Translations under genes and position numbers: made by a program
Shown: positions 1-39,409 of the stretch, piece after piece
Layout of the letters: the number at the start of each line of letters is the position of its first letter
Numbering within the stretch: position 1 is the stretch's first letter
DNA from: Candidatus Eiseniibacteriota bacterium
GTDB lineage: Bacteria; Eisenbacteria; RBG-16-71-46; CAIMUX01; VGJL01
Direction: 5' to 3'
Assembly (NCBI GenBank): GCA_963792585.1
Contig: CAWBWI010000006.1
Coordinates: 96,001 to 160,000 of the forward strand
DNA length: 64,000 nt
The notes under the pieces: generated by a model
Databases searched by the model: none
What the model was told of the DNA's origin: nothing
Seen by the model: only the letters and a program-made list of their open reading frames with translations

Positions 1-329
1 ACGATGTCGGCACGAAGATGGATCCAGGATGCTCCTGTGTGGAATCGCATGGAGGCAGTGGACTACATGGCCGGCGACCGCCGGCTCTGCCAAGAGGCGC
101 GATTATGGAACACGTAACACCTCTTAGCAAGTGCCGACTCCCCCTCTTTCTCGCCCAGGGGTCCACGGCAGCGAAAGTGCGCTCTCAATATCACGCACGC
201 ACAGCGAAGTGCTTCTGATAGGCCTTCTCTCGATGGAGTGGCCTGAGTCGACGCAGCCCGGAGAGATCCCGGGTTCCTGGACAGGCCACACCGCAATAAT
301 GGCGGTTGGTGTTGTATCGGCCTCAATCT

Positions 330-1310
330 TCACAAGTACTCCACATCCCCATGCGTCAGGAAGACCCGCTCGAGGCCCTTCCACCCGACTCGTAGCGCCC
401 CTCTAGATCCGTCTCGCACTAGTAAGGGATAGCCATTACCCCTGCGAAGCGGATTGATCACAAACCGGTGTCGCGCCGCTGCGGGTGTGGCGTTCCACAT
501 CACCGCTCGCGCACCCGGATAGTACCTGAGTAGCGATGCCACCAGGGGATCCAAGTCGTAGTCGAATGGGTCCGCGCTGAGCACGTCCAACACGAGTATA
601 CGTCTCGAGGATTCATCACGACGCACTATCAGTGCTCGTTTGACATGACTCCCATCCAAGAGAGCCCAGCACTCGTACCGCTGCAAGGGGCTGTGCACGT
701 ATCTCCACTCGAGGTACTCCGGCGAACGTTCCACCCAGATTCGGCCCGCTGGCGGCGCAGGGTGAAAGTCGTGTTTCTGCAGCAACGTGGCAGGGTCGGT
801 GCGAAGCACGTCACTGCGTCGCGGTGAGGGAGCGCGGGCTGCCGTCACCAGATAGAGAAGCGAATCGGGTCCCACCAAGCGTCGACAACCAAGCTGGCAG
901 ACAGCATCCTGCAGCAAGCCGGCCACTCGCCAACCTCGGCTGAGGAAGCCTGGCCGAGAAGCATCGTTGGCAAAATTGAAGAAGTAGTCGATTCCAATGA
1001 ATGTCTCGAGTGCGTAATCTAGCAGTCGCCCGAAGATGCCGCGTCCCCGGTACCCAGGGTCGACCACCGGATCGATATCGCGGGCGCCCGTCACGACTCT
1101 ATCATTGGCGATTACTCGCTTGGGGATCGCGGCATAAAAACCGATGACCCGTTCCCCATCGCAACAAACCACCCCCAACGACCTACCGCCAGGGCACTCC
1201 TCGTGAAGCCAATTGAAGCGCGCAGCGCTGAAGCTTGGATCGTGCCCACGGCGCAGTAGAGCAAGGCAAGATTCCTTGTCGGAGGATGTATAGGCGCGCA
1301 CGTTCAGCAT
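330..1310 (-). CDS. GNAT-family N-acetyltransferase (EPS-associated)
   Basis: Acetyl-CoA motif VDPGYRGRGIF, plus FFNFANDASRPGF and RSPEYLEWRY. Start chosen at MLNVRAY (ATG 1310) to avoid overlap with the upstream GT. Confidence 0.8.
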   Translation of the reverse strand: MLNVRAYTSSDKESCLALLRRGHDPSFSAARFNWLHEECPGGRSLGVVCCDGERVIGFYAAIPKRVIANDRVVTGARDIDPVVDPGYRGRGIFGRLLDYALETFIGIDYFFNFANDASRPGFLSRGWRVAGLLQDAVCQLGCRRLVGPDSLLYLVTAARAPSPRRSDVLRTDPATLLQKHDFHPAPPAGRIWVERSPEYLEWRYVHSPLQRYECWALLDGSHVKRALIVRRDESSRRILVLDVLSADPFDYDLDPLVASLLRYYPGARAVMWNATPAAARHRFVINPLRRGNGYPLLVRDGSRGALRVGWKGLERVFLTHGDVEYL

Positions 1311-1354
1311 CGTGCTTCCCGATGTTCTTCGTCGTGTGTTCCGATCATTTGCTG

Positions 1355-2242
1355 CTAGTCCCAACTTCCGTGCAGGAGGCGTGCCAGTCTGAGCCACGGG
1401 AATTGATCGTGGGGCCGGGAGTGGAATGCGCGCCGGAAGTCCTGCAGCGCCCCACGCAGGTTACCATGCTCCAGGCGGAGACGTCCCCGCTGGGCGTAGT
1501 TAAGTGTCCACGCGGCGCATGCTTGGTCAGGTGTTACAAAGTCTGGATACCGTTTGAGGAAGCGCCCCAAGAGATTCAGCACGTTTGCATAACGCTCTTC
1601 CTGGCGGTGCGACATCTGCCCGCTCCAGATACGGTATCGGGCTAGTGGTTTGGGCACGTACATGAACTCGTAGCGAGTTGAGACCCGTAACCAAAGGTCG
1701 TAGTCAATTCCCATGCTTAGGGACTCGTCGAAGCCTCCGAACTCTTCGGCCACCAGCCGTGGCAGCAGTGAGGTATTGAAGGTGACGAAATTCGTCATCA
1801 GGAGGCGTGAGGTGATCTGGCCACCGTATCGGTGCACCGGCGGCGTCGGCAGCGGCCGCCCCTCTCCGTCCATCAGGGCGATGTCGCCGTAGATCACACC
1901 CGCGAGAGGGTTAGCTTGCAGCAAGGGGACCTGATGCGACAGTTTTCCTGGCAACCATGCGTTGTCGGCGTCGCAGAAGCCGACGTACTCACCTCGGGCA
2001 GCACGCAGGCCGGTGTTCTTGGCCGCAGTCTGCCCGCTGTTAGTCTGGCGGATTACCCGGACACGCGGGTCACCCACATAGGCCTCGAGCACCTGGGGCG
2101 TGTCGTCGGTCGAACCGTCGTCGATTATGATGACGTCAATCGCGGGCCAGTCTTGGGCAAGCACAGAATCCACGGCCTCCCCTAGATACCGGCCCATGTT
2201 GTAACTGGCGGTGATGACAGAGACGAGGGGAACCTGGGTCAT
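1355..2242 (-). CDS. Glycosyltransferase family 2
   Basis: VSVITASYN, IIIDDGSTD, FCDAD (DxD), GGFDESL..DYDLWLR. Confidence 0.93.
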   Translation of the reverse strand: MTQVPLVSVITASYNMGRYLGEAVDSVLAQDWPAIDVIIIDDGSTDDTPQVLEAYVGDPRVRVIRQTNSGQTAAKNTGLRAARGEYVGFCDADNAWLPGKLSHQVPLLQANPLAGVIYGDIALMDGEGRPLPTPPVHRYGGQITSRLLMTNFVTFNTSLLPRLVAEEFGGFDESLSMGIDYDLWLRVSTRYEFMYVPKPLARYRIWSGQMSHRQEERYANVLNLLGRFLKRYPDFVTPDQACAAWTLNYAQRGRLRLEHGNLRGALQDFRRAFHSRPHDQFPWLRLARLLHGSWD

Positions 2243-2269
2243 GGGTTACCTCTCAAGCGGCGCTCCGGT

Positions 2270-3322
2270 TCACGACGAAGCTGTCCAATACACTCCGCTG
2301 GGATCTGTGGCCAGACCAAGTCGGCGACGGAGGCGAAGCCACAGTATCTCTGCGCCGCATAGTGTCCAGCGGAAGGTGGTCATGTCCCCGCTCACGCTAC
2401 TACGGGGCAGGGCGTAGGCGTCCTCCGGCGAGAGCAGATTCTGATAGGCGACGAAACATCCGCTGAAGCCCGCCTCCGCCACTAGGTCGCGAACCTCCGG
2501 TGTGAAGTCGACCGATTCACCCTGGGGGTAGGAAAACCAATTCGGAATCGCTCCGGTCATCTCAGCCAGGCGATCCCGCGATCCAGCCAGCTCCCACCGG
2601 GCTCTCTCAGGCGTGACCCGTGATAGGATAGGGTGCGTGATTGTGTGCGCACCCATAAGCATACCATCCGCGGCCATGGTCCGAATCTGCTCCCAGGTAA
2701 CCGGGGCATAGTCCAAGTGAGGTTCGTTGGAGAGAGAAGCCCCAAGCACGGACGCCAGGTCATCCAGGGTCGCCTCCTTCTGTTCGTCGGCCATGAAACG
2801 GCAAAGATCCGTCACGGCATGCCATGCCGCCGTGCGGCCATCCAGGTGATGGAGGTCGAGGAGCAAGGTTTGTCCGCCAATGTCAACAGCGAGACCGCGG
2901 GCGTTTGGCGCCTGAGCCAGCATGCATTCGAGGCGGTCCCACCACAACCAGAGACCGCCGTCAACAAACCCGGTAATCACGAAGAGCATGGCCGGGATGT
3001 CGTAGTCGCGAAAAATGGGATATGCGACTTCGTAGAAATCACGGTAGCCGTCGTCGACCGTCACCACCACGGGGCAACGGCCAGGGGGTCGTAGCCGGTT
3101 ACGTGCAGCCAGAATATCGTCCGGTCGCCATCGGGCATGGTACTGCGCTAGATAGGCTGCCTGACGCCGCAGCGAGGCCGCGTCGACGAAGTGGATATTT
3201 TCGTTGAAATCGGCTATAAATCGGTGATACATTAGAGTCCGCACGGTTCGGGCAGTGAGCAGCCGGCAGGTCGCCTCAAAGCCGGGGCAGGTGAGCAAGA
3301 GCCTTTTAAGCAGCCTTTTCAT
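2270..3322 (-). CDS. Polysaccharide deacetylase (CE4/NodB family)
   Basis: LMYHRF, VTVDDGYRDFY, GAHTITHPIL, FSYPQG. Start set at MKRLLKRLL (ATG 3322). Confidence 0.9.
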   Translation of the reverse strand: MKRLLKRLLLTCPGFEATCRLLTARTVRTLMYHRFIADFNENIHFVDAASLRRQAAYLAQYHARWRPDDILAARNRLRPPGRCPVVVTVDDGYRDFYEVAYPIFRDYDIPAMLFVITGFVDGGLWLWWDRLECMLAQAPNARGLAVDIGGQTLLLDLHHLDGRTAAWHAVTDLCRFMADEQKEATLDDLASVLGASLSNEPHLDYAPVTWEQIRTMAADGMLMGAHTITHPILSRVTPERARWELAGSRDRLAEMTGAIPNWFSYPQGESVDFTPEVRDLVAEAGFSGCFVAYQNLLSPEDAYALPRSSVSGDMTTFRWTLCGAEILWLRLRRRLGLATDPSGVYWTASS

Positions 3323-3500
3323 AGGTTGATTCCGCCGCAGGGCCTCCCTCCGCGATGGCGAGCGCACGACCAATAGCGCACAGACCAGCGTGTTTACTGT
3401 AGGCAACCGCATAGGTTTTGTCGATCCCCCCTGCCATTCGACTGGCGCGGCGGGAACTGGGGGGTGTAGGTCGTTGCGCCCCATTTCCGTAACGGACTAG

Positions 3501-5215
3501 CCCGGATTTCTCACCAAGGGGAATAGCAACGGGCGGACAGATTCGTTAAAAGGGTGTTGTCTACGCACCTACAACGAATCATGAGGTCCGCCCGATGCAG
3601 ACACACTGTAACTCCGCTCAACTCGCGTTCCAACCCCTTGGTCGTCGAATCGTAGAGGCCGCTTTCGACGCGGGTCATGTGACTAGCGACGCGGGCGGCC
3701 TCCTGCTTCGAGAGATCGCTTCCACCACGCGGATGATGGAGCGGATCGCCTCCTGCTTCACCGACGCCCGTGATCCTGCCCGGGCTGAGCATTCCCTCGA
3801 CGGTCTGATTGCCCAGAGGATTTATGGCCTGGCCCTCGGCTACGAGGACCTCAACGACCACGATCAGCTCCGTCGGGATCCCCTGCTTGCCGTTCTGGTG
3901 GGCAAGACCGACCCGGATGGCCAGGATCGGGTCCGAGAGCGGGACCGGGGCTGCGCCCTGGCCGGCAAGAGCACTCTGAATCGGTTGGAGCACACTCCTC
4001 CCACCGAGCGGGATCGTTATCACCGGATCGCCTACGACTCTGGAAAGCTCGACCGATTGCTGGTGGATCTGTTCCTGGAGTCCTACGATCACGCCCCTCG
4101 ACAGATCATTCTGGATCTGGACGCTACGGATGACCCGGTGCACGGATCCCAGGAGGAGCGGTTCTTCCACGGCTACTACGGGCACTACTGCTTTCTGCCG
4201 CTCTACGCTTTCTGCGGGGAGCACCTGCTCCTGGCCCGATTGCGGCCGTCGAACATCGATGCCTCTGCGGGGACTGTCAAGGAGTTGGCGCCCATCATTC
4301 ATCAGATCTGGCAGCGGTGGCCGAGAACCCAGATCGTCTTGCGTGCGGATTCAGGCTTTGCACGGGAAGAGATCATGGTTTGGTGTGAGGAACAGGGCGT
4401 CGACTACGTCTTTGGGTTGGCGAAGAACTCTCGGTTGATCCGCAAGATTGCCCGGGAGTTGAAACGGGCCCTGAAACGCTATGGCCGGACAGGAAAGCCT
4501 GCCCGATTCTTCCGGGACTTCCTTTACCGGACCCGAGAGAGCTGGAGTCGATCTCGACGGGTGGTAGGGAAAGCGGAGCATCTGGAGAAGGGGAGCAATC
4601 CGAGATTCGTGGTGACCTCTCTTGAATCGGCACCAGCCCGGGATCTCTACGAAGCCATCTACTGCGCCCGCGGCGAGATGGAGAACCGGATCAAAGAACA
4701 ACAGCTGGATCTGTTTGCCGACCGGACGAGCGCGACCAGCATGCGGTCGAATCAGTTGCGACTCTATTTCTCGAGCTTTGCCTACGTCCTGCTGCAGTAC
4801 CTGCGGCGCGTCGGACTGCGGGGAACGGAACTGGCGCGAGCTCAGTGCGGGACGATCCGTCTGAAACTCCTGAAGATCGGCGCCCTCATCGCGGTGAGTG
4901 TCCGCCGGATCCGTTTCCGGATGGCCAGCGGCTATCCACATGCCGACCTGTTCCGCCAAGTGATGGAAAACCTACGACACGATCCGAGTCCAGGCTAATC
5001 CCCGAAGGTCCCCGAACACCAAAGATCCGCGTCGATTACGGAGACAAGGGAGGAGTCTGCCTCGGGCGGACTGGCGCACCTCCCAGGACGCCAGATTCCG
5101 GTCTCATGATCGGGAATCGAACGGCGGATGCGCGACGAGGGGCGCGAGAGAGGATCCATCGTCCTCCGGCACGCCCCTCGATCAGCTTCTTCCTACACCT
5201 GGTGAGAAATGCGGG
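3501..5215 (+). mobile_element. Complete IS1380-family insertion sequence
   Basis: Terminal IRs CCCGGATTTCTCACCA (3501-3516) and TGGTGAGAAATGCGGG (5200-5215) match 15/16. CTAG direct repeat at 3497-3500 and 5216-5219. Intact transposase inside. Confidence 0.93.
3595..4998 (+). CDS. IS1380-family transposase
   Basis: 467 aa with VTSDAGGLLL, GYEDLNDHDQLRRDP, LDLDATDDPVHG, LRADSGF, YCARGEMENRIKEQQ. Confidence 0.95.
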   Translation: MQTHCNSAQLAFQPLGRRIVEAAFDAGHVTSDAGGLLLREIASTTRMMERIASCFTDARDPARAEHSLDGLIAQRIYGLALGYEDLNDHDQLRRDPLLAVLVGKTDPDGQDRVRERDRGCALAGKSTLNRLEHTPPTERDRYHRIAYDSGKLDRLLVDLFLESYDHAPRQIILDLDATDDPVHGSQEERFFHGYYGHYCFLPLYAFCGEHLLLARLRPSNIDASAGTVKELAPIIHQIWQRWPRTQIVLRADSGFAREEIMVWCEEQGVDYVFGLAKNSRLIRKIARELKRALKRYGRTGKPARFFRDFLYRTRESWSRSRRVVGKAEHLEKGSNPRFVVTSLESAPARDLYEAIYCARGEMENRIKEQQLDLFADRTSATSMRSNQLRLYFSSFAYVLLQYLRRVGLRGTELARAQCGTIRLKLLKIGALIAVSVRRIRFRMASGYPHADLFRQVMENLRHDPSPG

Positions 5216-5262
5216 CTAGTATATCTTTCTCCGTTGATCGCTGGTTCGGTCAGAGGAGGAGG

Positions 5263-6405
5263 ATGTCGCCTTTGCGTTTGGTACTGCTGATCTCGATCGC
5301 CATGCTGATGTACGTGTACGTGGGATACCCAACACTATGCGCGATACTTGCTGTCGTTAGGCACCGCCGGGTCCGCTCGGCGGAAGGCACCCCGCGAGTC
5401 AGCATCCTGATCTCAGCTCACAATGAAGTCGCTCAGATCGCTGCGACTGTTCACAATAAACTTGGCTTGGACTATCCCCCAGACCGCTTCGAGATCATCG
5501 TGGTCTCCGACTGCTCGGACGACGGAACCGACCAAGCGGTTGCCAGTATAGCTGCCGCCGAACCGCGGGTCCGCCTGGTCCGCCAGGAGCCGCGTGGCGG
5601 AAAGACCGCGGCGTTGAACAAGGCGGTCCCAATGGCTGGCGGGGAGATTCTCGTGTTTTCCGATGCCAACTCCCTCTACGCTCCCGACTCCTTGAGGAAA
5701 CTGGTGGAGCCGTTCGCCGACCCTGACGTGGGCTATGCGACCGGCCGCATGGTCTACCGAGCGCCCGACCGCTCGCTCACAGGCGAGAGCTGCTCTGCCT
5801 ATATGCGCTACGAGAATATCTTGCGCGGTCTCGAAACTGCGATTGGGTCGGTGGTTGGAGTCGATGGTGGCATCGACGCTGTCCGGGCCGACCTCTATGT
5901 TGTTATGCGTGCGGATCAGCAGCCAGACTTCGTGCTGCCTCTCAGCGTCATAGAGCGGGGGTGGCGGGTCGTATTTGTTCCGGAAGCCAAACTCTACGAG
6001 GCGACTCTCACCAAGGCTACCGATGAATTCCGAATGCGGACCCGGGTTGTCCTGCGTGCCTGGCACGCCCTGCGCGACAAAGCTGGTCTGCTGAATCCGC
6101 TACGATATGGGCTGTTCTCATTGCAGCTTCTGTCTCACAAGTGGCTGCGGTACTTGGCCCCTGTGTTCCAGCTTGGCGCGCTCGTCAGTAACGTCGCGCT
6201 GGTGGGTCGCGGTACGACGTGGGACGCCACGGCTGCCTTCCAGGCTGCATTCTACCTACTGGCGGCGTTAGGATTCCTAGGATGCTCACTGCCGGTACCG
6301 CTAGCGTTCCCCTACTACCTCTGCCTGTTGAACGCCGCCGCTGGCACGGCGATGGTGCGATTCCTGGGCGGCCAGAAGCAGGCCACCTGGACACCTCGAA
6401 CCTGA
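5263..6405 (+). CDS. Membrane glycosyltransferase family 2 (CesA/PgaC-like)
   Basis: VSILISAHNE, VVSDCSDD, GKTAALN, FSDAN and TM segments at both ends. Strong RBS GAGGAGGAGG before ATG 5263. Confidence 0.9.
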   Translation: MSPLRLVLLISIAMLMYVYVGYPTLCAILAVVRHRRVRSAEGTPRVSILISAHNEVAQIAATVHNKLGLDYPPDRFEIIVVSDCSDDGTDQAVASIAAAEPRVRLVRQEPRGGKTAALNKAVPMAGGEILVFSDANSLYAPDSLRKLVEPFADPDVGYATGRMVYRAPDRSLTGESCSAYMRYENILRGLETAIGSVVGVDGGIDAVRADLYVVMRADQQPDFVLPLSVIERGWRVVFVPEAKLYEATLTKATDEFRMRTRVVLRAWHALRDKAGLLNPLRYGLFSLQLLSHKWLRYLAPVFQLGALVSNVALVGRGTTWDATAAFQAAFYLLAALGFLGCSLPVPLAFPYYLCLLNAAAGTAMVRFLGGQKQATWTPRT

Positions 6406-6419
6406 AAGGACGGGCCGCG

Positions 6420-7784
6420 ATGCGCCTCCCCGACTGGATGGTGGGCCGCTTGTTCGAGCCTGTCTGGGACTTCTACGAGGGTAGCGTGCGGCTGCGCACC
6501 TACCGGCAGCTCATGCGTAACCAATTCGATGCACCTGAGGCCCTCGAGGCACGGCGGCAGAAGCGTCTGAACGCCCTGGTCCGGCACGCCGCGGCGACTA
6601 GCCCCTTCCACCGACGACGTCTGGAGGCGGCGGGAATCGACCCAACCCGGGTCCGATCGATCTCTAACCTACGCGACCTGCCCCTTCTAACCAAAGTCGA
6701 CATCCGCGGGCACCTGGAGGGGATTCTCTCCGCGACCCACGGACGTGAGGACCTGTTACCAGCGAAGACGGGCGGCTCCACGGGCACGGCCCTGCAGGTC
6801 TATTGTGATCGTCGCGGCGTCGAACTGCGTGAAGGGGCCGCCCTGTTGGCCGACACATGGAGCGGCTGGCGCCTGGGCCAGCCCACGGCCGCGGTTTGGG
6901 GGAATCCGCCACGGCCCGTCACCCTGCGGAACCGACTGCGGTTGGCGTTGAAAGACCGCATCATTTTTCTCGACACGATGTGTCTCGACGAGCGGGCGGT
7001 GCGGGAGTTCGCGGCCGCCTGGCGCCGCCTGCGCCCTGGCCTGCTCTTTGGGCACGCCCACTCCCTGTACCTGCTTGCCGGAATGCTCGAGGAGATGGAC
7101 GAAGTTCTGCGGCCGCGGGGAATCGTCGCCTCCAGCATGATGCTCCTCCAGCCCGAACGCGAGGTCATCGAGCGGGTCTTCGCGCTCCCGGTGACCAACC
7201 GCTACGGTTGCGAAGAGGTCAGCCTGATCGCGTGCGAGTGCGAAAGGCACGCCGGGCTGCACATCAACGCCGAGCATGTTGTGGTCGAAGTGCTGCGCGA
7301 CGACGGCAGTCCTTGCGCTCCGGGCGAAGACGGCCGCATCGTCGTGACCGAATTGGTCAACCTTGGGATGCCGATGCTACGCTACGAAGTTGGCGACCGC
7401 GGTGTGCTACATGATCGGCTCTGTCCCTGCGGCCGTCCCCACCCCCTCCTGCGGACGGTGACAGGCCGCACTGCAGATTTCTTGGTGGCCGCCGACGGTA
7501 GCCGTGTCGCCGGCATCTCGCTCATCGAGAACACGCTGACGCGCTACTCTGGCATCGCGCAGCTGCAGATCGTGCAGGAGGAGGTCGGACGCGTCGATCT
7601 GAATGTCGTGCCAGCCGCCGGCTGGGAGGCGGCCGTTGCGGACGCTCTGGTTCGGGTGATGCGCGAGTCTCTGGGCGGCGAGCTGTCGGTGGTCCTGCAC
7701 ATCTGCGACACCATTCCCCCGGAGCCAAACGGCAAGTACCGCTTTTCCATCTGCCGTGTACCCGGCGTGCGTACCGGGGCGTGA
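6420..7784 (+). CDS. Phenylacetate-CoA ligase family protein (CapK-like, EPS-associated)
   Basis: LPLLTKVDIR, KTGGSTG, RYGCEE, MPMLRYEVGD, GRTADFL, PNGKYRF. Confidence 0.88.
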   Translation: MRLPDWMVGRLFEPVWDFYEGSVRLRTYRQLMRNQFDAPEALEARRQKRLNALVRHAAATSPFHRRRLEAAGIDPTRVRSISNLRDLPLLTKVDIRGHLEGILSATHGREDLLPAKTGGSTGTALQVYCDRRGVELREGAALLADTWSGWRLGQPTAAVWGNPPRPVTLRNRLRLALKDRIIFLDTMCLDERAVREFAAAWRRLRPGLLFGHAHSLYLLAGMLEEMDEVLRPRGIVASSMMLLQPEREVIERVFALPVTNRYGCEEVSLIACECERHAGLHINAEHVVVEVLRDDGSPCAPGEDGRIVVTELVNLGMPMLRYEVGDRGVLHDRLCPCGRPHPLLRTVTGRTADFLVAADGSRVAGISLIENTLTRYSGIAQLQIVQEEVGRVDLNVVPAAGWEAAVADALVRVMRESLGGELSVVLHICDTIPPEPNGKYRFSICRVPGVRTGA

Positions 7785-8004
7785 GCGACTTCCGCCACCG
7801 CCCTTGCAGGAAAACAACGGGGAAACCGGAAGGATCTCTGAGGTGGTGTCCTCGGCCGCGTCAGGGCGCCGGAGCTATGTGCCAAGGTGGACGAAATCTG
7901 TCACGACACGGTCACTCGGGCACACGCCGCGATTGACGAGCGTGGTAGCCTTCGATGTTCTGTCTTCTCGTAGTCCGAAGCGGCACTTGAGGGGGCCCGT
8001 ACAA

Positions 8005-8640
8005 ATGTCTACTCCCGTGAAGCCGAGGATAGTCAGGGCGTTGAATGACCCAGGGGCAGCCTATCGTTACGGTGGGACCCTCCTGCGAGCGGCTCTTGTC
8101 CGCCTGCGCTACGCGTCTAACCCGCGGATCCGTCTTGGTCGTGGGCTCCTTGTCGCCCAGGGCCTCTCGATAGACGGACCTGGCCACGTGACGATCGGCG
8201 AAGGCGTTTCCGTCGACGGCTCTAGTCACACGGTCACTCTCCCAACTTATGCTGCAGACGCAGAAATCGTGATTGGGGATGGCTGTTTCATCAATGGAGC
8301 CAGATTCGGGTGCGCCCGAAAGATCATGGTCGGACGAAATTGTATCCTTGGCGATTGTCGCATCATGGATACGAATTTCCATAGCATATATCCAGGCCGT
8401 CGTGATGATCCGAGCTTGGTGCGAATCGCTCCCGTGACGATTGAAGATGACTGCTGGATCGGTGCTGGCGCCTTCATTCTCCCGGGAACGAAAATCCGCA
8501 AAGGAAGCACGGTAGCTGCCGGGGCGGTCGTCATGGGGCGCTTTCCTCCGTTCTCGGTGATCGCGGGTAACCCAGCACGAGTCATCCTGTCGGTCACTCC
8601 GGAGCATGAGGCTGAATCGCCGGAGACTCAAAGTCATTGA
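8005..8640 (+). CDS. Hexapeptide (LbH) O-acyltransferase
   Basis: IVIGDGCFIN, VTIEDDCWIGAGAFILPG, AGAVV, AGNPARVI. Confidence 0.9.
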   Translation: MSTPVKPRIVRALNDPGAAYRYGGTLLRAALVRLRYASNPRIRLGRGLLVAQGLSIDGPGHVTIGEGVSVDGSSHTVTLPTYAADAEIVIGDGCFINGARFGCARKIMVGRNCILGDCRIMDTNFHSIYPGRRDDPSLVRIAPVTIEDDCWIGAGAFILPGTKIRKGSTVAAGAVVMGRFPPFSVIAGNPARVILSVTPEHEAESPETQSH

Positions 8641-25505: not shown

Positions 25506-26231
25506 CTACGCCTGCTTTCTCTTCCTCCAACCCAGTGCCGCGGACAACAGAGCCCCACCAAGAAGCAGCATCGAACTGGGCTCGGGGACATCATTAATGA
25601 AGTCCTGATAGTGGTTGCCGGACTGATTATTGTCGTACCACTCGTATTGCGCGGAGGTCTGGCCGGAGGTGATATCTGCGAGGAACCCTGCGTAGGCCAC
25701 TGCGTCGATGTCACCACCGCTGTTGTACAGGAAGCGGTTCGTCCCGTAGGCAGCCTGCCAGATTGCCATCTGCAAAGCATGCTTCTTCTGTACGGTGTTG
25801 ACCAACGACCCGTACTTGTTCGCCAGGTAGGCGGCCTGCCCAAGACCCGCGGCAGACCGCAAATCGTCTCCGTCGCCCACCGGATTGACCCACGCAGCAG
25901 CACTGCTAGCGCCGTCTGCGTCTGTGTACCGCTCGGCATAGTAGGAATCAGTGGTGCCTGTGTAGTTGAAGAGATCCACGCACCACACGAGACCAAGGTT
26001 GATCACGCCGCCCCCGACGGGGTCCGGGTCGAAGCCGCCGAGCGCAATACCGTTGTTGGCGCCCCTCAGGCCAGCGTCCCAAACGCCATTGTTGGCAGTG
26101 GACCACTTGTAGTCGAATCCACTGATGTTGGACCAAGCAACATTGAAAGTGCCTGTCGTCATTGCCTGAGCCGGGGCAGTGATCCCGGCCAGTACGACGA
26201 CCAAGAAGACTGCGATCACCAACTTCTTCAT
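25506..26231 (-). CDS. PEP-CTERM sorting domain protein 1
   Basis: Signal peptide MKKLVIAVF..AQA. C-terminus VPEPSSMLLLGGALLSAALGWRKRKQA. Core WCVDL..ALQMAIW. Confidence 0.95.
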   Translation of the reverse strand: MKKLVIAVFLVVVLAGITAPAQAMTTGTFNVAWSNISGFDYKWSTANNGVWDAGLRGANNGIALGGFDPDPVGGGVINLGLVWCVDLFNYTGTTDSYYAERYTDADGASSAAAWVNPVGDGDDLRSAAGLGQAAYLANKYGSLVNTVQKKHALQMAIWQAAYGTNRFLYNSGGDIDAVAYAGFLADITSGQTSAQYEWYDNNQSGNHYQDFINDVPEPSSMLLLGGALLSAALGWRKRKQA

Positions 26232-26987: not shown

Positions 26988-27741
26988 ATGAGGGTTACCG
27001 CCGTAGCTCTTGCGCTGGTTTCGTTGCTTGGCTGTTCTGCCGTCGGTTTCCTCCGCTTACTCCAGCACGGTGTGGATGGACTACCTGGAAAATCAGAACC
27101 ACGTCTACGGGAGCTACAAGGTCAACAATATCGACTTCAACGGTTTCTACGCTGGACCCTGGAGCGCCTGGTACGACAACAACGGGGTCAAGGGGGCCTA
27201 CCGAGGCCTGCTGTTTTGCGTGGAGACGACCGTATCGGAACCGGGAGGGGGCAACCTTCACCTTCACCCGTACGACGCTTACGACACGGACAACTACGTC
27301 CCGCCGAATGGCAATGTCTTCGGGATGAAGTGGGCGGCCTATCTCCTGCACAACGTGACCCCCACGCTGGCGAGCAGCGAAAAGAATCGCGCCGCGCTGC
27401 AGCTAGCCATGTGGGAAGCCATCAACGATGGATCCAGCACCTATGCATTCAACCTACGGGACTTTGGCATCAACCGAGGCAAATTCTACGTCAAAGGCAA
27501 CCTCGGGTACTGGGGTGGTGTCGGGTTTGGCGGTGCCGGGTTTAGCTCCAACGACGTCTTCAACCAAGCCGCCTACTACCTGAGCACCTATCAAGGTCAG
27601 GGTCGCGCAAGGTGGTTGCATGATGGCCAGGATCAGATGGAGGACCTCAGGGATGTCCCCGAGCCCGGTTCCCTGATGCTCCTAGGTGGCGCCCTGCTTG
27701 GACCTGCTCTATTGGCGTTGAAGCGCAGGCGCTCCGCCTAG
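26988..27741 (+). CDS. PEP-CTERM sorting domain protein 2 (one indel in the signal peptide)
   Basis: C-terminus VPEPGSLMLLGGALLGPALLALKRRRSA. Core LFCVE..AALQLAMWE. Deleting one G near 27030 joins ATG 26988 to give the signal peptide MRVTAVALALVSLLAVLPSVSSA. Confidence 0.9.
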
Positions 27742-31519: not shown

Positions 31520-31999
31520 CTAGCGGTCCTCGAAGAAGAGGGTGTCGATCGCCGCCCTCGTCGGAGTGGTGGCGCTCGACCCCCTCGACGATGTACTCGG
31601 CGAGCGACCATCTCGCAGGTGGCGAAGACCTCGGCCTCGATGCAGGTGGCCGCCGATCACTTCGCCCGACGACTTCGACGCCGAAGATGTGCAGGTGCGG
31701 CGTCCATCCGGCCCGTCCTCGTTCGGCACGAGGTTTCCCTCGATCCCGAGCAGGTCGAGCGGCCCCTCGACCGGTGCACCGGCATGCGCGGCTCGGTGAT
31801 CGGCAGGCGCGCCCCGGCCTGGATGTCGCTGAACTGGACGTTCCGCACCGAACCGATCGCCGAGAGCATGACGCCGTGCTTCAGACCTACGGTCCGCGCG
31901 AACCAGCAGAAGTTGCTCGAGCAGGTCGGCGCCGGGCATGATCTGAATGATGAACCTGCGTCCCGACCGGCACTCGCGATGCCAGAACTGCTCCTCCAC
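31520..31999 (-). CDS. PPC-domain (DUF296; AF0104/ALDC-like fold) protein, frameshifted
   Basis: Pieced across frames: GRRFIIQIMPGADLLEQL, SAIGSVRNVQF, EGPLDLLGIEGNL, PHLHIFG, GEVIGGHL, VFATCE. Confidence 0.75.
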   Translation of the reverse strand: MEEQFWHRECRSGRRFIIQIMPGADLLEQLLLVRADRRSEARRHALGDRFGAERPVQRHPGRGAPADHRAAHAGAPVEGPLDLLGIEGNLVPNEDGPDGRRTCTSSASKSSGEVIGGHLHRGRGLRHLRDGRSPSTSSRGSSATTPTRAAIDTLFFEDR

Positions 32000-32265
32000 T
32001 CACTCCTCCGCTGCGCGGCGCAGGGCCGCTTCGACACGGGCGTCGATCGCATAGTCGAGGGCGCCCCGATCCGTGATCTTGATCGATCCCGCCGCGACGC
32101 CCATGGCGCGCGAGCGTCTCCTCGATTCTCTCGCGGATCAGTTGCTCGAACTGCTTCTTCACGGTGGACTCGATCTCGGATCTCGAGCCGATCGGCCGGC
32201 TCGACGACGACCATCAGGTCGCTCGATTGCATCGTGCCGGCGCTCGCCTTCCGCTTGATCTTCAT
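32000..32265 (-). CDS. citD: Citrate lyase acyl carrier protein (gamma chain), frameshifted
   Basis: ASAGTMQSSDLMVVVEP (prosthetic-group Ser motif), STVKKQFEQLIRERIEE, DRGALDYAIDARVEAALRRA. Confidence 0.88.
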
Positions 32266-33594: not shown

Positions 33595-35709
33595 TCAGTC
33601 CAGCAATACGAGCCGACGACGCAGATCTTGCCCGTCGAGTCGGACCCGAACTTCATACGCGCCGGCGGCAATGCGGCGGCCGTGCTCATCGGTACCGTCC
33701 CATGCGAAGTCGTGTCCGCCGGCTGGGTACTCCCCCGCAGCGATGCGTCGGATAAGCCTGCCCCCAATGTCGAAAACCTCCATGCGCACAGCCCCGGGGG
33801 CGCCCATGGCGAAGCGCAACCGCACCGTCCCACTGGATGGGTTCGGATACGCGAGTAGCTGGAGCTGCGACCCACCGCCCGCGACCATCGGATCGACGGC
33901 TGCGGAGAGATACCGAACCGGTCCACCAACCGGGCCGTACTCACCAAGACCGCCCGCGGTGTCGGTCCACCAGATCACGCCGAAATCCTCGCTCGGGAAC
34001 TGCGAGTCGACTTTGAACTGGAAACCGGACAGATAACCCCCCGGAGGGACAGGGGTCGTTGTCGTGGTCCACAGGATGCCTCCGGGCTCGAGGCGGTCCC
34101 CGCATCCCATCGCGTTCTGGTAATCGGCGGGCAGAGGCTCCCAATTCCAGCCGGGAGGTGATTCGACATCCTGATAGGGCACATCGAGGTACATCGCCCA
34201 CTCGTTCACGGGAAGGTCGAAATCGTTAAGGATCCCATACCCATAGGTCACGAGACTGCGTTCGCCACCCATCATCGTGAGGGTGACGTTCTTCGGCGCG
34301 CCTCCCGCGGGGACGGGCCGAATCACATTGATGTGGGTCAGGCATAGGTGGTCGGCATCGTCGATCCCTGCCGCGTTGTCCTCGATTTCATCGTTGTCGA
34401 GCCGGACCTTCCCGTCCTGCCCGACGGTGACGTCGAGTTCGTCGTACGCATCGTCGCGGGTATCCTCCGTGGGCGAATGATGACTGTCACCCCACGGATT
34501 GGAGACGTGGATCTTCTTGTTCCCGTTCTCATCGACAGTGATCCCCGCGACGGTCATGTAGTGGGCCGCGTCATCATCGACCGGGTTCCCATCCTCGTCG
34601 CACCAGGTGACTCGCAACAGAACGTCATGACACTTCTGGAAGTTGGCCAGCAAACTGTCCCAGAGGGCAAGCTGCGAACTCATCCGCTTGTGCTCGAGGG
34701 GGCGTCGTCCGTTGGGCTGTTGTTGCCCCTTCATGACGCCCTTGTCCTTCATGTACTTCGTCACGCCGCCGTCGCCCTTGTCGTTGTCGTGAACTTCCTT
34801 CTTCAGATCCTCCTGGATCTTCTTGTTCTTCTCCTCCTGCGTCCCTTGGGCGGGCGCAAGTTCCGAGTATCCGTTGTTCGCCCAGTAACTCAGGCAGTTC
34901 GCGAATGCCGACGCCTGGCAGATCGCCCCATCGCCCTGCGATATGTCGGGCACGTACTTCCATGTGCTGATCGTTGCGGGCGCCTTGGCTTCCGCTTTCA
35001 CTTTGTCCACCGCTGGCCCGGGGTCTGGGGTCGGCGTTCCGTTCTCGTTCTTCACGCCCACGCGGGCCTGCCCCGCTTGAGCGTCCGCTGCGATGTTGAG
35101 GAGATAGCGGTGCTCATTCGGCCCGCTTGGTATCGGATAGCTCTGATCGATCCACTCCGACCAGACGCCCTGGCGCAGAAATCGAGAGCCGACGACCAGG
35201 GCGAGCTGTTGCATTGGGAAGGTGTTGTTGCAGTTGGTCGCGAAGACGATCTCCCAGGTCGCGCTCGGGCTTCCCATGTCCTGTACGGGAAACGGAGGGC
35301 TTTCCATGATGGAGCGCTGGAAGGGCACGAAACCGTTCTGGTTTGGTTCGTAGAAGACGAGAGCCCAGCCGCCGACGTCGAGGCTCGGCATCTCCAACCA
35401 CCCCTCGAGCGGCTCGATCCGGGGCTGCACGTTCGATTCGGGAGACGGCTGCCAGCCCATGGTCGCCGGGAGTCCCCCGAACGGCGAGAAGACGGTATTC
35501 TCGCAGTTGACCGGTGATCCGCGCTGGTCGGGCGCGAGATCGTCGAAATCCCAGATGCCGGTCATGACGACCGGTTGACCGAAGCCTCCACCCCCGATCG
35601 AATTCACGACGATGGGTACGGGCGGGTCGGCCGAAACAGGCGATATGAAAGTGGCCGGAAGAATCGCGGTCAGGATCACGAAGTCGCGAAGGAGTTTGCC
35701 GGTCTTCAT
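33595..35709 (-). CDS. Secreted protein with putative papain-like (Cys-His-Asn) domain and FlgD-Ig/T9SS-like C-terminal tail
   Basis: Signal peptide, ICQASAFANCLSYW, HYMTVAG, VSNPWG. Tail AYPNPSSG..VFDIGGRLIR..WDGTDEHGRRIAAGAYEVR. Confidence 0.75.
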   Translation of the reverse strand: MKTGKLLRDFVILTAILPATFISPVSADPPVPIVVNSIGGGGFGQPVVMTGIWDFDDLAPDQRGSPVNCENTVFSPFGGLPATMGWQPSPESNVQPRIEPLEGWLEMPSLDVGGWALVFYEPNQNGFVPFQRSIMESPPFPVQDMGSPSATWEIVFATNCNNTFPMQQLALVVGSRFLRQGVWSEWIDQSYPIPSGPNEHRYLLNIAADAQAGQARVGVKNENGTPTPDPGPAVDKVKAEAKAPATISTWKYVPDISQGDGAICQASAFANCLSYWANNGYSELAPAQGTQEEKNKKIQEDLKKEVHDNDKGDGGVTKYMKDKGVMKGQQQPNGRRPLEHKRMSSQLALWDSLLANFQKCHDVLLRVTWCDEDGNPVDDDAAHYMTVAGITVDENGNKKIHVSNPWGDSHHSPTEDTRDDAYDELDVTVGQDGKVRLDNDEIEDNAAGIDDADHLCLTHINVIRPVPAGGAPKNVTLTMMGGERSLVTYGYGILNDFDLPVNEWAMYLDVPYQDVESPPGWNWEPLPADYQNAMGCGDRLEPGGILWTTTTTPVPPGGYLSGFQFKVDSQFPSEDFGVIWWTDTAGGLGEYGPVGGPVRYLSAAVDPMVAGGGSQLQLLAYPNPSSGTVRLRFAMGAPGAVRMEVFDIGGRLIRRIAAGEYPAGGHDFAWDGTDEHGRRIAAGAYEVRVRLDGQDLRRRLVLLD

Positions 35710-36841: not shown

Positions 36842-38155
36842 CTATCGCGTTTCCCCGTTACCCAGAAGCACGACCTTGCGGTCGAGCGTCTGGTCCCCCA
36901 CCCGGAGTCGCAAGAGGTACACTCCCCCCGCCAGACGACGGCCGCCGTCGTCCCGACCGTTCCACGAGACGACGTGGTTGCCGGAAGGATGGACGCTTCC
37001 GCCGAGGATCTCGCGGACCATTCGTCCGGCAGGATCGAATGCGTGCAGGGCGACCGGGGCGGCAGACTCCAGATGGAAACGGATCTCTGTGCTTGCGCGG
37101 AACGGGTTCGGAAAGGTCCCGATGCGTCGCGCCGGGGTGGAGTTCGACTCCCCATCCGCGATTCCCGCCGTGGCCAAGCACCCTTCTCCGTACGCGCCCA
37201 TCAAGACCCCGCAGTCGTTGTTCTGCGGAAGGCACGGGGATGCGCCCGCCAGCCGGAGATCGAGTTCTTCCAGACCGCAGATGAGCGGATCGGACGAGAT
37301 GTTCCCGGAGATTCCCGTCTGATCTTCGAGCGTGCCGCCGTAGTTCGCTCCCACGTTGTCAAATGCGTCGGAGCAAGCGACCGTCACGGTGCAGTCGTGG
37401 CCCGGATCCAGCGCGGCGAAGATTCCCACCCCACGGATGTTGTAGGCCACCAGCGAGTTCTCCAGGATCACCTGGCATTCGTTGACGCACCAGATTCCGC
37501 TCCCCTCGTAGGCGCTGTTGCGGACGATGGTGCAACCCGTGATCCGGGTCGAGGCATGGTTCTCGCAGAAGATGGCTCCGCCCCAGAAGAGGCTCTCGTT
37601 GTCGTAGAAGGTGCAGTCACGAATCTTCGGGGCGGCATCGTCGACGTAGATCCCGCCCCCATCGACGCCGGCGCAGTTGGAGAAGACGCAGTCCTCGATG
37701 ATCGACTCCGAGGCATAGGCGAAACATCCGCCCCCGCCGGCCTGAGCTTCGTTCCCGGTGAAGACGCAGGCGCGGATCGTCGGAGAAGATCGATGGAGAG
37801 CGATCCCTCCGCCTCGGGAAGTGGGCCAGTACCCTTCGAGATAAGCCCCGGTGATCGTGAGCCCCTCGATCCCCGCGGCCGCGTCGACGTCGTCGCACCG
37901 AAAGACGCGGCCCAATCGCTCGGCGTCCACCGTCACGCAGGCAGGGTCCCCGGTCCGGCTGCGCAGCCAGACGCCGGACTTCATGGCGATGTCGTGCTCC
38001 CGGTATGTCCCGCACGCAACGCGAACGGTGTCTCCAGCCTGTGCGGCGTCGATGCCGGCCTGGATGGTCGGCTGGTCGGCCGGCACCTCGATCGTCACCG
38101 CCCCCACGGGTCCGGCGAGACCCAAGAACAGAATCGGGATCCATCGGGTTCGCAC
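36842..38155 (-). CDS. Right-handed beta-helix repeat protein with FlgD-Ig/T9SS-like tail
   Basis: VPADQPTIQAGID, repeated GGG(I/C)..F.GN/DN, NISSDPL, SPCLP. Tail FPNPF..WNGRDDGGRRLAGGVYLLRL. RBS AGGAGG before GTG 38155. Confidence 0.88.
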   Translation of the reverse strand: MRTRWIPILFLGLAGPVGAVTIEVPADQPTIQAGIDAAQAGDTVRVACGTYREHDIAMKSGVWLRSRTGDPACVTVDAERLGRVFRCDDVDAAAGIEGLTITGAYLEGYWPTSRGGGIALHRSSPTIRACVFTGNEAQAGGGGCFAYASESIIEDCVFSNCAGVDGGGIYVDDAAPKIRDCTFYDNESLFWGGAIFCENHASTRITGCTIVRNSAYEGSGIWCVNECQVILENSLVAYNIRGVGIFAALDPGHDCTVTVACSDAFDNVGANYGGTLEDQTGISGNISSDPLICGLEELDLRLAGASPCLPQNNDCGVLMGAYGEGCLATAGIADGESNSTPARRIGTFPNPFRASTEIRFHLESAAPVALHAFDPAGRMVREILGGSVHPSGNHVVSWNGRDDGGRRLAGGVYLLRLRVGDQTLDRKVVLLGNGETR

Positions 38156-38287
38156 GACTGCCCTCCTTGTTCCGCACGCGACATCTTGGGATGTGGTGAC
38201 CGTCTCCGGGGGGCCCGGACCACACTCCGCTCCTCCTCGGAAGAGCGCATATAGTCTAGGTCCCTCAGCCCCGGCAGGCAAGGACCC

Positions 38288-38389: not shown

Positions 38390-39322
38390 CTATCTGAGCA
38401 GGGTCACCCGGACCACCGATCGATCCCCGGCCTTCAGGAAGTAGACGCCCGCGGGCAGGGCCGCGCCCGCCTCGTCGCGCCCGTCCCATGTCACGGTTTC
38501 GCCATGGGACGTGCGAAGGTCACGGACGAACCGTCCGCTCGGATCGAAGATCGCTACCTCGAGGTCGTCGGAAACCGGTCCCGCAAAGGTGAGCCTGGCC
38601 GATCCCCGGACGGGATTGGGCGAAACCAGGATCCGGGTCTGCGAGGCCAACGGGTTTTCGACGCCGGCGGGCGTCTGGAAGCTCAGCTGCAGGGAGGCCG
38701 TCGCCTGCCCGCCCTGGGAGCCTCCGGGCAGCGCCAGACAGTCTCCTCCCGCGCCGAACGTGAACTCGTATCGCCCCGCCGGGATATGCACCAGATCATC
38801 CACGCTCGTTTGCGTGTTCGAGTACTGCCTTTGGTAGATGTACCCGCTGTTCGGCACGCGCAGAACGATGTCGATGACACCACTCTCGGCGGCCAGATAC
38901 GTGCCCTGGATAAGGCACTCGAGAGGCGTGTCGGTATCGAACACGAAGGTCCCGTTGCTGGTCCCTATCCCAAAGGCGAAGACGGCGGGGGCATGAAGCC
39001 CCGCGTCCGCCGAAAAGCCCAGGGAAGCCGTGACGCCCGCGGCTGAGATCTCCGAGTTTTGATCCGCAATCACGGAGACGTGGCTTCCGGCCTGCGCGAG
39101 CTTGCAGTGCGCCGTGCGCGCGTATGCGCCCGGATCCTGTGTGGTGGAATCCTCCTCGGACTCGATCAGGTCGCCCTCGGGGTTGAGCTGGATCTTGGCA
39201 ATGGTCACGACCTGGCGGGTCTGAGAGACGGGCGTGACGGTGGAGTACGCCAGGGTCGGGATGATCGCAAAGACGAAGAGCGCGATCGCGACGCTACATA
39301 GGTACCCTGCCGGAGTGCGCAT
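38390..39322 (-). CDS. Secreted hypothetical protein with FlgD-Ig/T9SS-like tail
   Basis: Signal peptide, beta-rich core. Tail SPNPVRG..IFDPSGRFVR..WDGRDEAGAALPAGVYFLK. Confidence 0.85.
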   Translation of the reverse strand: MRTPAGYLCSVAIALFVFAIIPTLAYSTVTPVSQTRQVVTIAKIQLNPEGDLIESEEDSTTQDPGAYARTAHCKLAQAGSHVSVIADQNSEISAAGVTASLGFSADAGLHAPAVFAFGIGTSNGTFVFDTDTPLECLIQGTYLAAESGVIDIVLRVPNSGYIYQRQYSNTQTSVDDLVHIPAGRYEFTFGAGGDCLALPGGSQGGQATASLQLSFQTPAGVENPLASQTRILVSPNPVRGSARLTFAGPVSDDLEVAIFDPSGRFVRDLRTSHGETVTWDGRDEAGAALPAGVYFLKAGDRSVVRVTLLR

Positions 39323-39409
39323 GAAGTCCTCCAAGTGAAGAGGTCAATCGCGGCAAGACCGACAATTGTCGCACATCCCGGGGCAGGCGTCCACTGCGGG
39401 GGCGGCACA

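Follow-up and report, generated by a model that had tools for sequence, protein, structure and literature searches.

The window that we have analyzed, a stretch of 64,000 nucleotides from a Candidatus Eiseniibacteriota genome, contains on its minus strand a citrate lyase operon in which a gene of the PPC/DUF296 family, referred to as X in what follows, is encoded between the carrier and lyase-subunit genes (Table 1). All six classical families, citC, citD, citE, citF, citX and citG, are present, and Pfam profiles bear out the order citC-citD-X-citE-citF-citX-citG, with abutting or overlapping ends, that had been read from the DNA in the original prediction. The ends of the genes are coupled: the stop of citC overlaps the start of citD, X begins with a GTG codon at 31999 that abuts the citD stop and is directly preceded, within the last citD bases, by a ribosome-binding-like GGAGGAG run, only a few bases separate the X stop from the citE start, and the citE stop overlaps the start of citF. 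A scan for promoters and terminators gave results at chance level.

Table 1. Genes of the citrate lyase operon in the window
Gene	Product and family	Position	Strand	Remarks
citC	citrate lyase ligase, PF08218	32262..33293	-	intact, 343 aa
citD	acyl carrier subunit, PF06857	~32000..32265	-	frameshifted
X	PPC/DUF296 protein, PF03479	31520..31999	-	~156 aa in intact orthologues; frameshifted here by single-base indels
citE	lyase subunit, PF03328	30581..31517	-	frameshifted; start approximate
citF	ACP transferase subunit, PF04223	29044..30594	-	frameshifted; end approximate
citX	prosthetic group transferase, PF03802	28563..29069	-	
citG	triphosphoribosyl-dephospho-CoA synthase, PF01874	27803..28570	-	start approximate

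X is distributed over three reading frames of the window, with its HLH and GGHL motifs in different frames, and the broken frame scores only E 2e-4 and 21.9 bits against PF03479, where the cut-off is 25 bits. Intact orthologues (loci L004 and L003) match the same profile with E 6e-24 and 2e-23, corresponding to 83-85 bits, so that the assignment to the PPC family on the basis of these motifs is confirmed. Alignment of the DNA of the window gene with that of the L003 orthologue establishes 401 identical bases out of 471 and ~8-10 internal single-base indels; the codons of the His triad are present in the window gene. Because citD, citE and citF are broken in the same manner, the indels are most likely assembly or read errors and not decay of X, and because five of 40 relatives have an undamaged X at the corresponding place in the operon we have rejected the possibility that X is a pseudogene. 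Named records with 71-100% identity to X are from Candidatus Eisenbacteria. As for the surroundings of the operon, two related secreted-looking proteins with C-terminal VPEP motifs, which we take to be PEP-CTERM-like, are encoded just downstream of citG (window positions 25506-26231 and 27010-27741, minus strand), and signal-peptide proteins with similar C-terminal tails, presumably FlgD/T9SS-like, are found upstream of citC (33595-35709, 36842-38281 and 38390-39334, minus strand).

A monomer model of X (pLDDT 84) superimposes on five DUF296 structures with VIA-align Z scores of 15-19, as expected for the PPC fold, and X matches AF0104 (2h6l) in sequence with E 5e-14. X is thus alike in sequence, fold and HxH...GGH motif to the prokaryotic PPC/DUF296 proteins (AF0104 2h6l, PH0802 2dt4, 3htn, 3hwu, 2p6y and 2hx0), the closest solved relatives being named only hypothetical or putative DNA-binding. 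It nevertheless belongs to a tight subfamily of its own, recovered as 3 clusters at E<1e-30 among 1.8 billion representatives, that differs from other prokaryotic DUF296 proteins in an invariant I58-R70 loop and hairpin, in being fixed in cit operons and in having twice lost the His triad (see below); a search of the Atlas yielded generic PCC clusters only. The PPC domain of plant AHL proteins is in the same Pfam family, but X has no AT-hook and resides in a metabolic operon.

The original prediction had drawn attention to the fold that PPC domains share with acetolactate decarboxylase (ALDC), and this analogy turns out to be a fair one, stronger than was stated, since the X model aligns with ALDC 4bt2 with a Z score of 9.7 (rmsd 3.0, 109 residues aligned); for C11orf54/PTD012 (1xcr) the corresponding values are 5.7, 4.4 and 133. 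The three-His pattern is found in most X members as well, although X is a single lobe of 156 aa, in comparison to 237 and 313 aa for these relatives, and shares only 11-12% identity with them. A relationship to ALDC is also documented for C11orf54/PTD012, a zinc enzyme that decarboxylates beta-keto-L-gulonate and for which weak esterase activity on p-nitrophenyl acetate had been reported earlier (PMC12337341). At the level of sequence X has no Pfam match besides PF03479 at E<0.1, and none to the ALDC or PTD012 families, there is no ALDC chain among its PDB sequence matches at E<10, and neither Pfam nor NCBIfam gives a match in X to OadA, malic-enzyme-type or FAH-type decarboxylase domains.

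In order to establish how widely this arrangement is conserved, as had been suggested at the outset, species genomes were scanned for homologues of X, yielding 61 loci, of which 44 are at least 50% identical to X and 17 encode distant DUF296 proteins. The citD-DUF296-citE synteny proved to be conserved. In all 44 of the closer loci citE directly follows X, and in 42 citD lies ahead of it; one of the remaining two is at a contig edge and the other is from a genome with citC-citD on another contig. Of the distant DUF296 loci, 17 in number, not one is near cit genes. Hosts of X are found in Eisenbacteria, Acidobacteriota, Gemmatimonadota, NC10 and Desulfuromonadia (including Citrifermentans bremense, Geomonas and Malonomonas rubra), together with one Rhodocyclaceae genome and a record labelled Neptunomonas. 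Sampling was also carried out independently of X by choosing loci in 301 Desulfuromonadia genomes by citE. X is carried by 51 of the top 52 matches (E 1.7e-94 or better), 8 of the 51 being from genomes that the scan for X had also covered, and the sole exception encodes a 45%-identical CitE of another cit lineage in a genome whose second operon has X; none of the 7 weaker citE-like loci that were read beyond these 52 has X. In the window's phylum citF occurs in 35 of 201 genomes, and among the 30 loci that were fetched X is present in 6/6 of the window's CitE clade and in 0/24 of a 40-46%-identical citDEF lineage, 17 of which show citD adjoining citE and 2 of which are without an upstream flank.

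X-type CitE proteins lie on one long branch of the CitE tree (support 0.83), and for this reason the position of X is best described as one ancient insertion that was then kept and not as many events, from which it follows that the synteny counts given above are not independent of one another. A single origin and abutting or overlapping gene ends are also compatible with X being a passenger, inserted once and retained only by virtue of tight translational coupling. Such an explanation is highly improbable, however, as no loss of X was noted in any complete operon examined within the X clade, dN/dS values are 0.10-0.31 and 32 positions are at least 97% conserved in 466 subfamily sequences.

With respect to the classical citCDEF(X)G operon (EC 4.1.3.6) all six families occur in the usual order, the difference being that a DUF296 gene is added after citD and ahead of citE. 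CitF and CitD of the X-type operon pass the NCBIfam cut-offs, whereas CitE (340 vs 443 bits, TIGR01588) and CitC (252 vs 262 bits) are below the equivalog cut-offs, and it is in CitE that the separate branch is seen; citrate is the putative substrate of the X-type lyase. In complete loci X is accompanied by the full citC/citX/citG set, and the main X-less lineage of these groups consists mostly of citDEF without citC/citX/citG in the stretches read. This pattern would fit a protein acting in maturation or repair of the carrier subunit, or of the prosthetic group derived from CoA, that either helps CitX/CitC to load CitD or clears mis-acylated carrier, yet X-less operons with citC and citX do exist (L119, L124 and L166) and no particular reaction is indicated, so that we consider a function of this type quite improbable. 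X-type CitE proteins also have a C-terminal tail, which is found in 73/77 and 18/19 X-type proteins vs 0/29 X-less ones. We considered this tail as a docking peptide and set the idea aside, because both the ribosome-binding site and the start of citF are located within its final codons and because residues 291-300 are folded, at pLDDT 83, in the CitE model.

Several genomes have two or three distinct citrate-lyase-like clusters of which only one bears X (L124 and L125 in G131; L161, L166 and L168 in G364; L154 and L167 in G257), and these provide natural pairs for a comparison of substrates. A second, X-less citD-citE-citF cluster is located at G000:C3:1077810-1081300 on the plus strand (L110, L111), with no citC/citX/citG beside it and with citD and citE in one frame, reflecting either a fusion or an indel; the gene directly ahead of it is presumably isocitrate/isopropylmalate-dehydrogenase-like, and the citDEF lineage that predominates in the window's phylum shows similar identity (40-46%). 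A monomeric NADP isocitrate dehydrogenase is encoded between citC and citD at L051:7414-9639 and, in a related operon, just upstream of citC at L125:13042-15249. In NC10 locus L058 (427-4624) a GntR-family regulator and a three-gene transporter that we take to be Tct-like come directly before citC, and in the His-less operon at L148 a DctA C4-dicarboxylate transporter (5320-6633) does so.

It had been proposed that X might supply an oxaloacetate decarboxylase that is otherwise missing. The observation on which this was based, that no oadGAB, malic enzyme or citrate transporter gene is in the operon or the window, is correct, in that PYC/OadA, OadB, malic enzyme, TctC, 2HCT and CitMHS profiles find no match anywhere on the window's contig. 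To our knowledge the E. coli cit operon is also without a decarboxylase. In the window's genome, which is 84% complete, a profile search gave no match to PYC/OadA, OadB, TctC, 2HCT or ATP-PEPCK; this genome has a GTP-PEPCK, an MDH/LDH-family gene and, on another contig than the window, a malic enzyme and a CitMHS-family gene. Among 45 X-bearing genomes a PYC/OadA domain is found in 35, an upper bound on decarboxylases as this domain also marks pyruvate carboxylases and transcarboxylases, and malic enzyme in 29. One or the other is present in 44 of the 45, with a single genome having neither, and OadB-like pumps are found in 9 of the 38 X-bearing genomes tested. A decarboxylase gap is not evident in these genomes and the proposal that X fills one finds no support.

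In four loci (L052, L053, L056 (~1-8620) and L054:5039-8551) citC is directly preceded by genes for an MmdA-like carboxyltransferase, a delta subunit, a biotin carrier and a sodium-pump beta subunit, with a tricarboxylate-transporter-like gene, which we assume to be TctA, further upstream in three of the four. This arrangement suggests that citrate uptake is coupled to sodium-pumping decarboxylation at these loci. In G. bemidjiensis the citCDEFXG cluster is given as Gbem_3862-3856, seven locus numbers for six named genes, two other oxaloacetate decarboxylases are reported and the lyase is proposed to serve the reverse TCA cycle (PMC2996986), which a decarboxylase would drain. We infer that the seventh locus is X; no discussion of it was found in the accessible text of that paper, and Gbem_3860 was not found in 12 of its 15 supplementary files (PMC2996986).

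The state of the His triad was compared in 466 distinct full-length subfamily sequences, a set in which His-less forms are over-represented because one homologue search out of three was built around such a protein. All three histidines are present in 335 of these sequences, and 120 retain one at the most, usually with Gln-Tyr-Arg in place of the triad. The names returned by the His-less-centred search are Holophaga, Geothrix, Mesoterricola and Terracidiphilus. In the class holding this first His-less group X occurs in 17 of 135 genomes, in every case without an intact triad and in every case in the order citD-X-citE. A second His-less group consists of two metagenome loci, L126 and L127 (2/2), with Gln-Val-Arg and Gln-Val-Val in complete operons. 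On a CitE tree of 54 operons strongly supported branches part the two groups and His-bearing operons lie between them, and on this basis the triad has been lost twice; partial losses of His are seen in a betaproteobacterial group as well. Gln and Arg at the lost positions are single-base changes from His codons and were not counted as functional convergence. The retention of the His ligands, on which the zinc-enzyme proposal depended, thus holds for the window gene and fails in two whole lineages that keep X in the operon.

Pooled pairwise dN/dS values, which are crude estimates at high GC, are 0.26 and 0.13 for His-less X and 0.10, 0.13 and 0.31 for three His-bearing groups, and by this measure His-less X is under purifying selection. 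Residues R14, F15, I58, G61, R70, F123, C126, G137, S143 and T150 are fixed in the cit-linked subfamily and rare elsewhere, and this invariant set, R14 through T150, is common to His-bearing and His-less X. In distant DUF296 proteins each His is kept in 96-99% of 123 sequences, from which we conclude that relaxation of the triad is special to the cit-linked subfamily. Since both His-less lineages keep X under selection with the subfamily residues fixed, the function that is selected in all lineages evidently does not need the triad. At the same time the triad is intact in 335/466 sequences, across several phyla and in the window gene, so that in most lineages selection acts on the predicted metal site, which could have a catalytic role in them.

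These results bear on the two enzymatic roles that we have considered. That X is a soluble zinc oxaloacetate decarboxylase, functional where the histidines are present and vestigial in the other lineages, would be in keeping with the fold match to 4bt2 and 1xcr, both of which decarboxylate beta-keto acids (PMC12337341), with the invariance of R70 and near invariance of E127, with strict retention of the triad across most phyla and with the lack of PYC/OadA or OadB matches in the window's genome; moreover, a PYC/OadA-family gene is present in all five of the His-less genomes tested and could have taken over an activity that was lost. Weighed against this are the decarboxylases already available to X hosts, those of G. 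bemidjiensis and the four sodium-pump loci included, purifying selection on X lacking the triad, and a length of 156 aa that amounts to half of the two-lobed ALDC chain. We therefore regard a decarboxylase as distinctly unlikely.

Alternatively, X could act as a zinc thioesterase on the acetylated carrier subunit of the lyase, releasing the acetyl group and serving as an off-switch that opposes CitC. Such a citrate lyase deacetylase is catalogued as EC 3.1.2.16 and we know of no gene for it; it acts on the lyase in organisms that also make citrate, as do the hosts of X, where citrate synthase is found in 43 of 45 genomes and a futile cycle is possible. X adjoins citD, its triad is kept in the majority of sequences as noted, and the activity would be compatible with X also binding the lyase. 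The deacetylase of Rubrivivax gelatinosus, however, is ~14 kDa with two subunits, which does not match a 17 kDa X monomer, and His-less lineages keep X, so that we judge this role unlikely even though the fold relative PTD012/C11orf54 is weakly active as an esterase on p-nitrophenyl acetate (PMC12337341). In one family searched for Rubrivivax citF was found in 0 of 13 genomes. In the order of genome G076 it is present in 5 of 401, with one X-type operon, one full X-less operon and three lower-identity loci without X in the stretch read.

The explanation that we favor, with a probability of about one half, is that X serves the X-type citrate lyase as an accessory subunit or regulator, probably trimeric and restricted to this lineage. 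A binding partner is likelier than a zinc decarboxylase because two lineages keep X without the predicted zinc-binding histidines. Among the options of the original prediction, that of a lyase regulator or scaffold fits best, with synteny, fold and loss of the triad in support and with contact between the proteins assumed. In plants the PPC/DUF296 domain forms trimers and serves as a module for protein interaction (PMC9946822), and CitE-like enzymes, too, are trimers of an obligate kind (PMC3832036). X would form a trimer as do other PPC domains. Its contact surface may be made up of the I58-R70 loop and the C-terminal hairpin (R140-T150), with either the three-fold core of CitE or the carrier CitD as the docking site, and in this position X would assemble or tune the lyase. 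The predicted zinc site would be optional, as two lineages do without it; in lineages that retain the triad a metal bound there may coordinate a carboxylate ligand, adding a further level of regulation. A brake or assembly control on the lyase would be useful in X hosts because 43/45 have citrate synthase, and with an active lyase acetyl-CoA would be wasted.

Several observations argue against an accessory subunit. Conservation of the triad in most sequences could reflect catalysis there, both characterised relatives of this fold are zinc beta-keto-acid decarboxylases (PMC12337341), and X appears to derive from one insertion in one operon clade, with other citrate lyase lineages managing without it. 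Physical contact is not shown by gene position alone. A crude analysis of inter-protein covariation (18-38 effective sequences) was uninformative, as top scores were similar for CitC, CitD, CitE and CitF, driven by shared ancestry. It is conceivable, if doubtful, that the readings combine, with X a fourth subunit of a lyase branch that is widespread and unstudied and whose X zinc site is the EC 3.1.2.16 off-switch or a new oxaloacetate decarboxylase in His-bearing lineages and with pseudo-enzymes in the two others. If true, this would be a case of a prokaryotic DUF296 protein that acts as an enzyme, along with natural pseudo-enzyme versions in two lineages.

The gene families concerned are already known, and in their fixed combination they make up a variant of the classical operon. 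In the open-access literature searched we found no paper joining DUF296 (COG1661, PD1-like, PF03479, PPC domain) to citrate lyase. The arrangement is real, conserved and unexplained, with a decarboxylase the less likely reading. Prokaryotic DUF296 proteins are represented by several solved structures that are labelled 'putative DNA-binding' or 'hypothetical', and the X subfamily supplies a fixed metabolic context for one of them. The citrate lyase complex is itself structurally open, given that a search of PDB sequences returned no homologue of CitD. Natural pairs of His-bearing and His-less X, together with cultured, non-pathogenic hosts such as Citrifermentans bremense, Geomonas and Malonomonas rubra, make the function of the family directly testable. 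X marks a branch of the lyase across Desulfuromonadia, Acidobacteriota, Eisenbacteria, Gemmatimonadota, NC10 and Rhodocyclaceae, and within this branch the way in which the lyase is built or switched may differ from that of the textbook enzyme.
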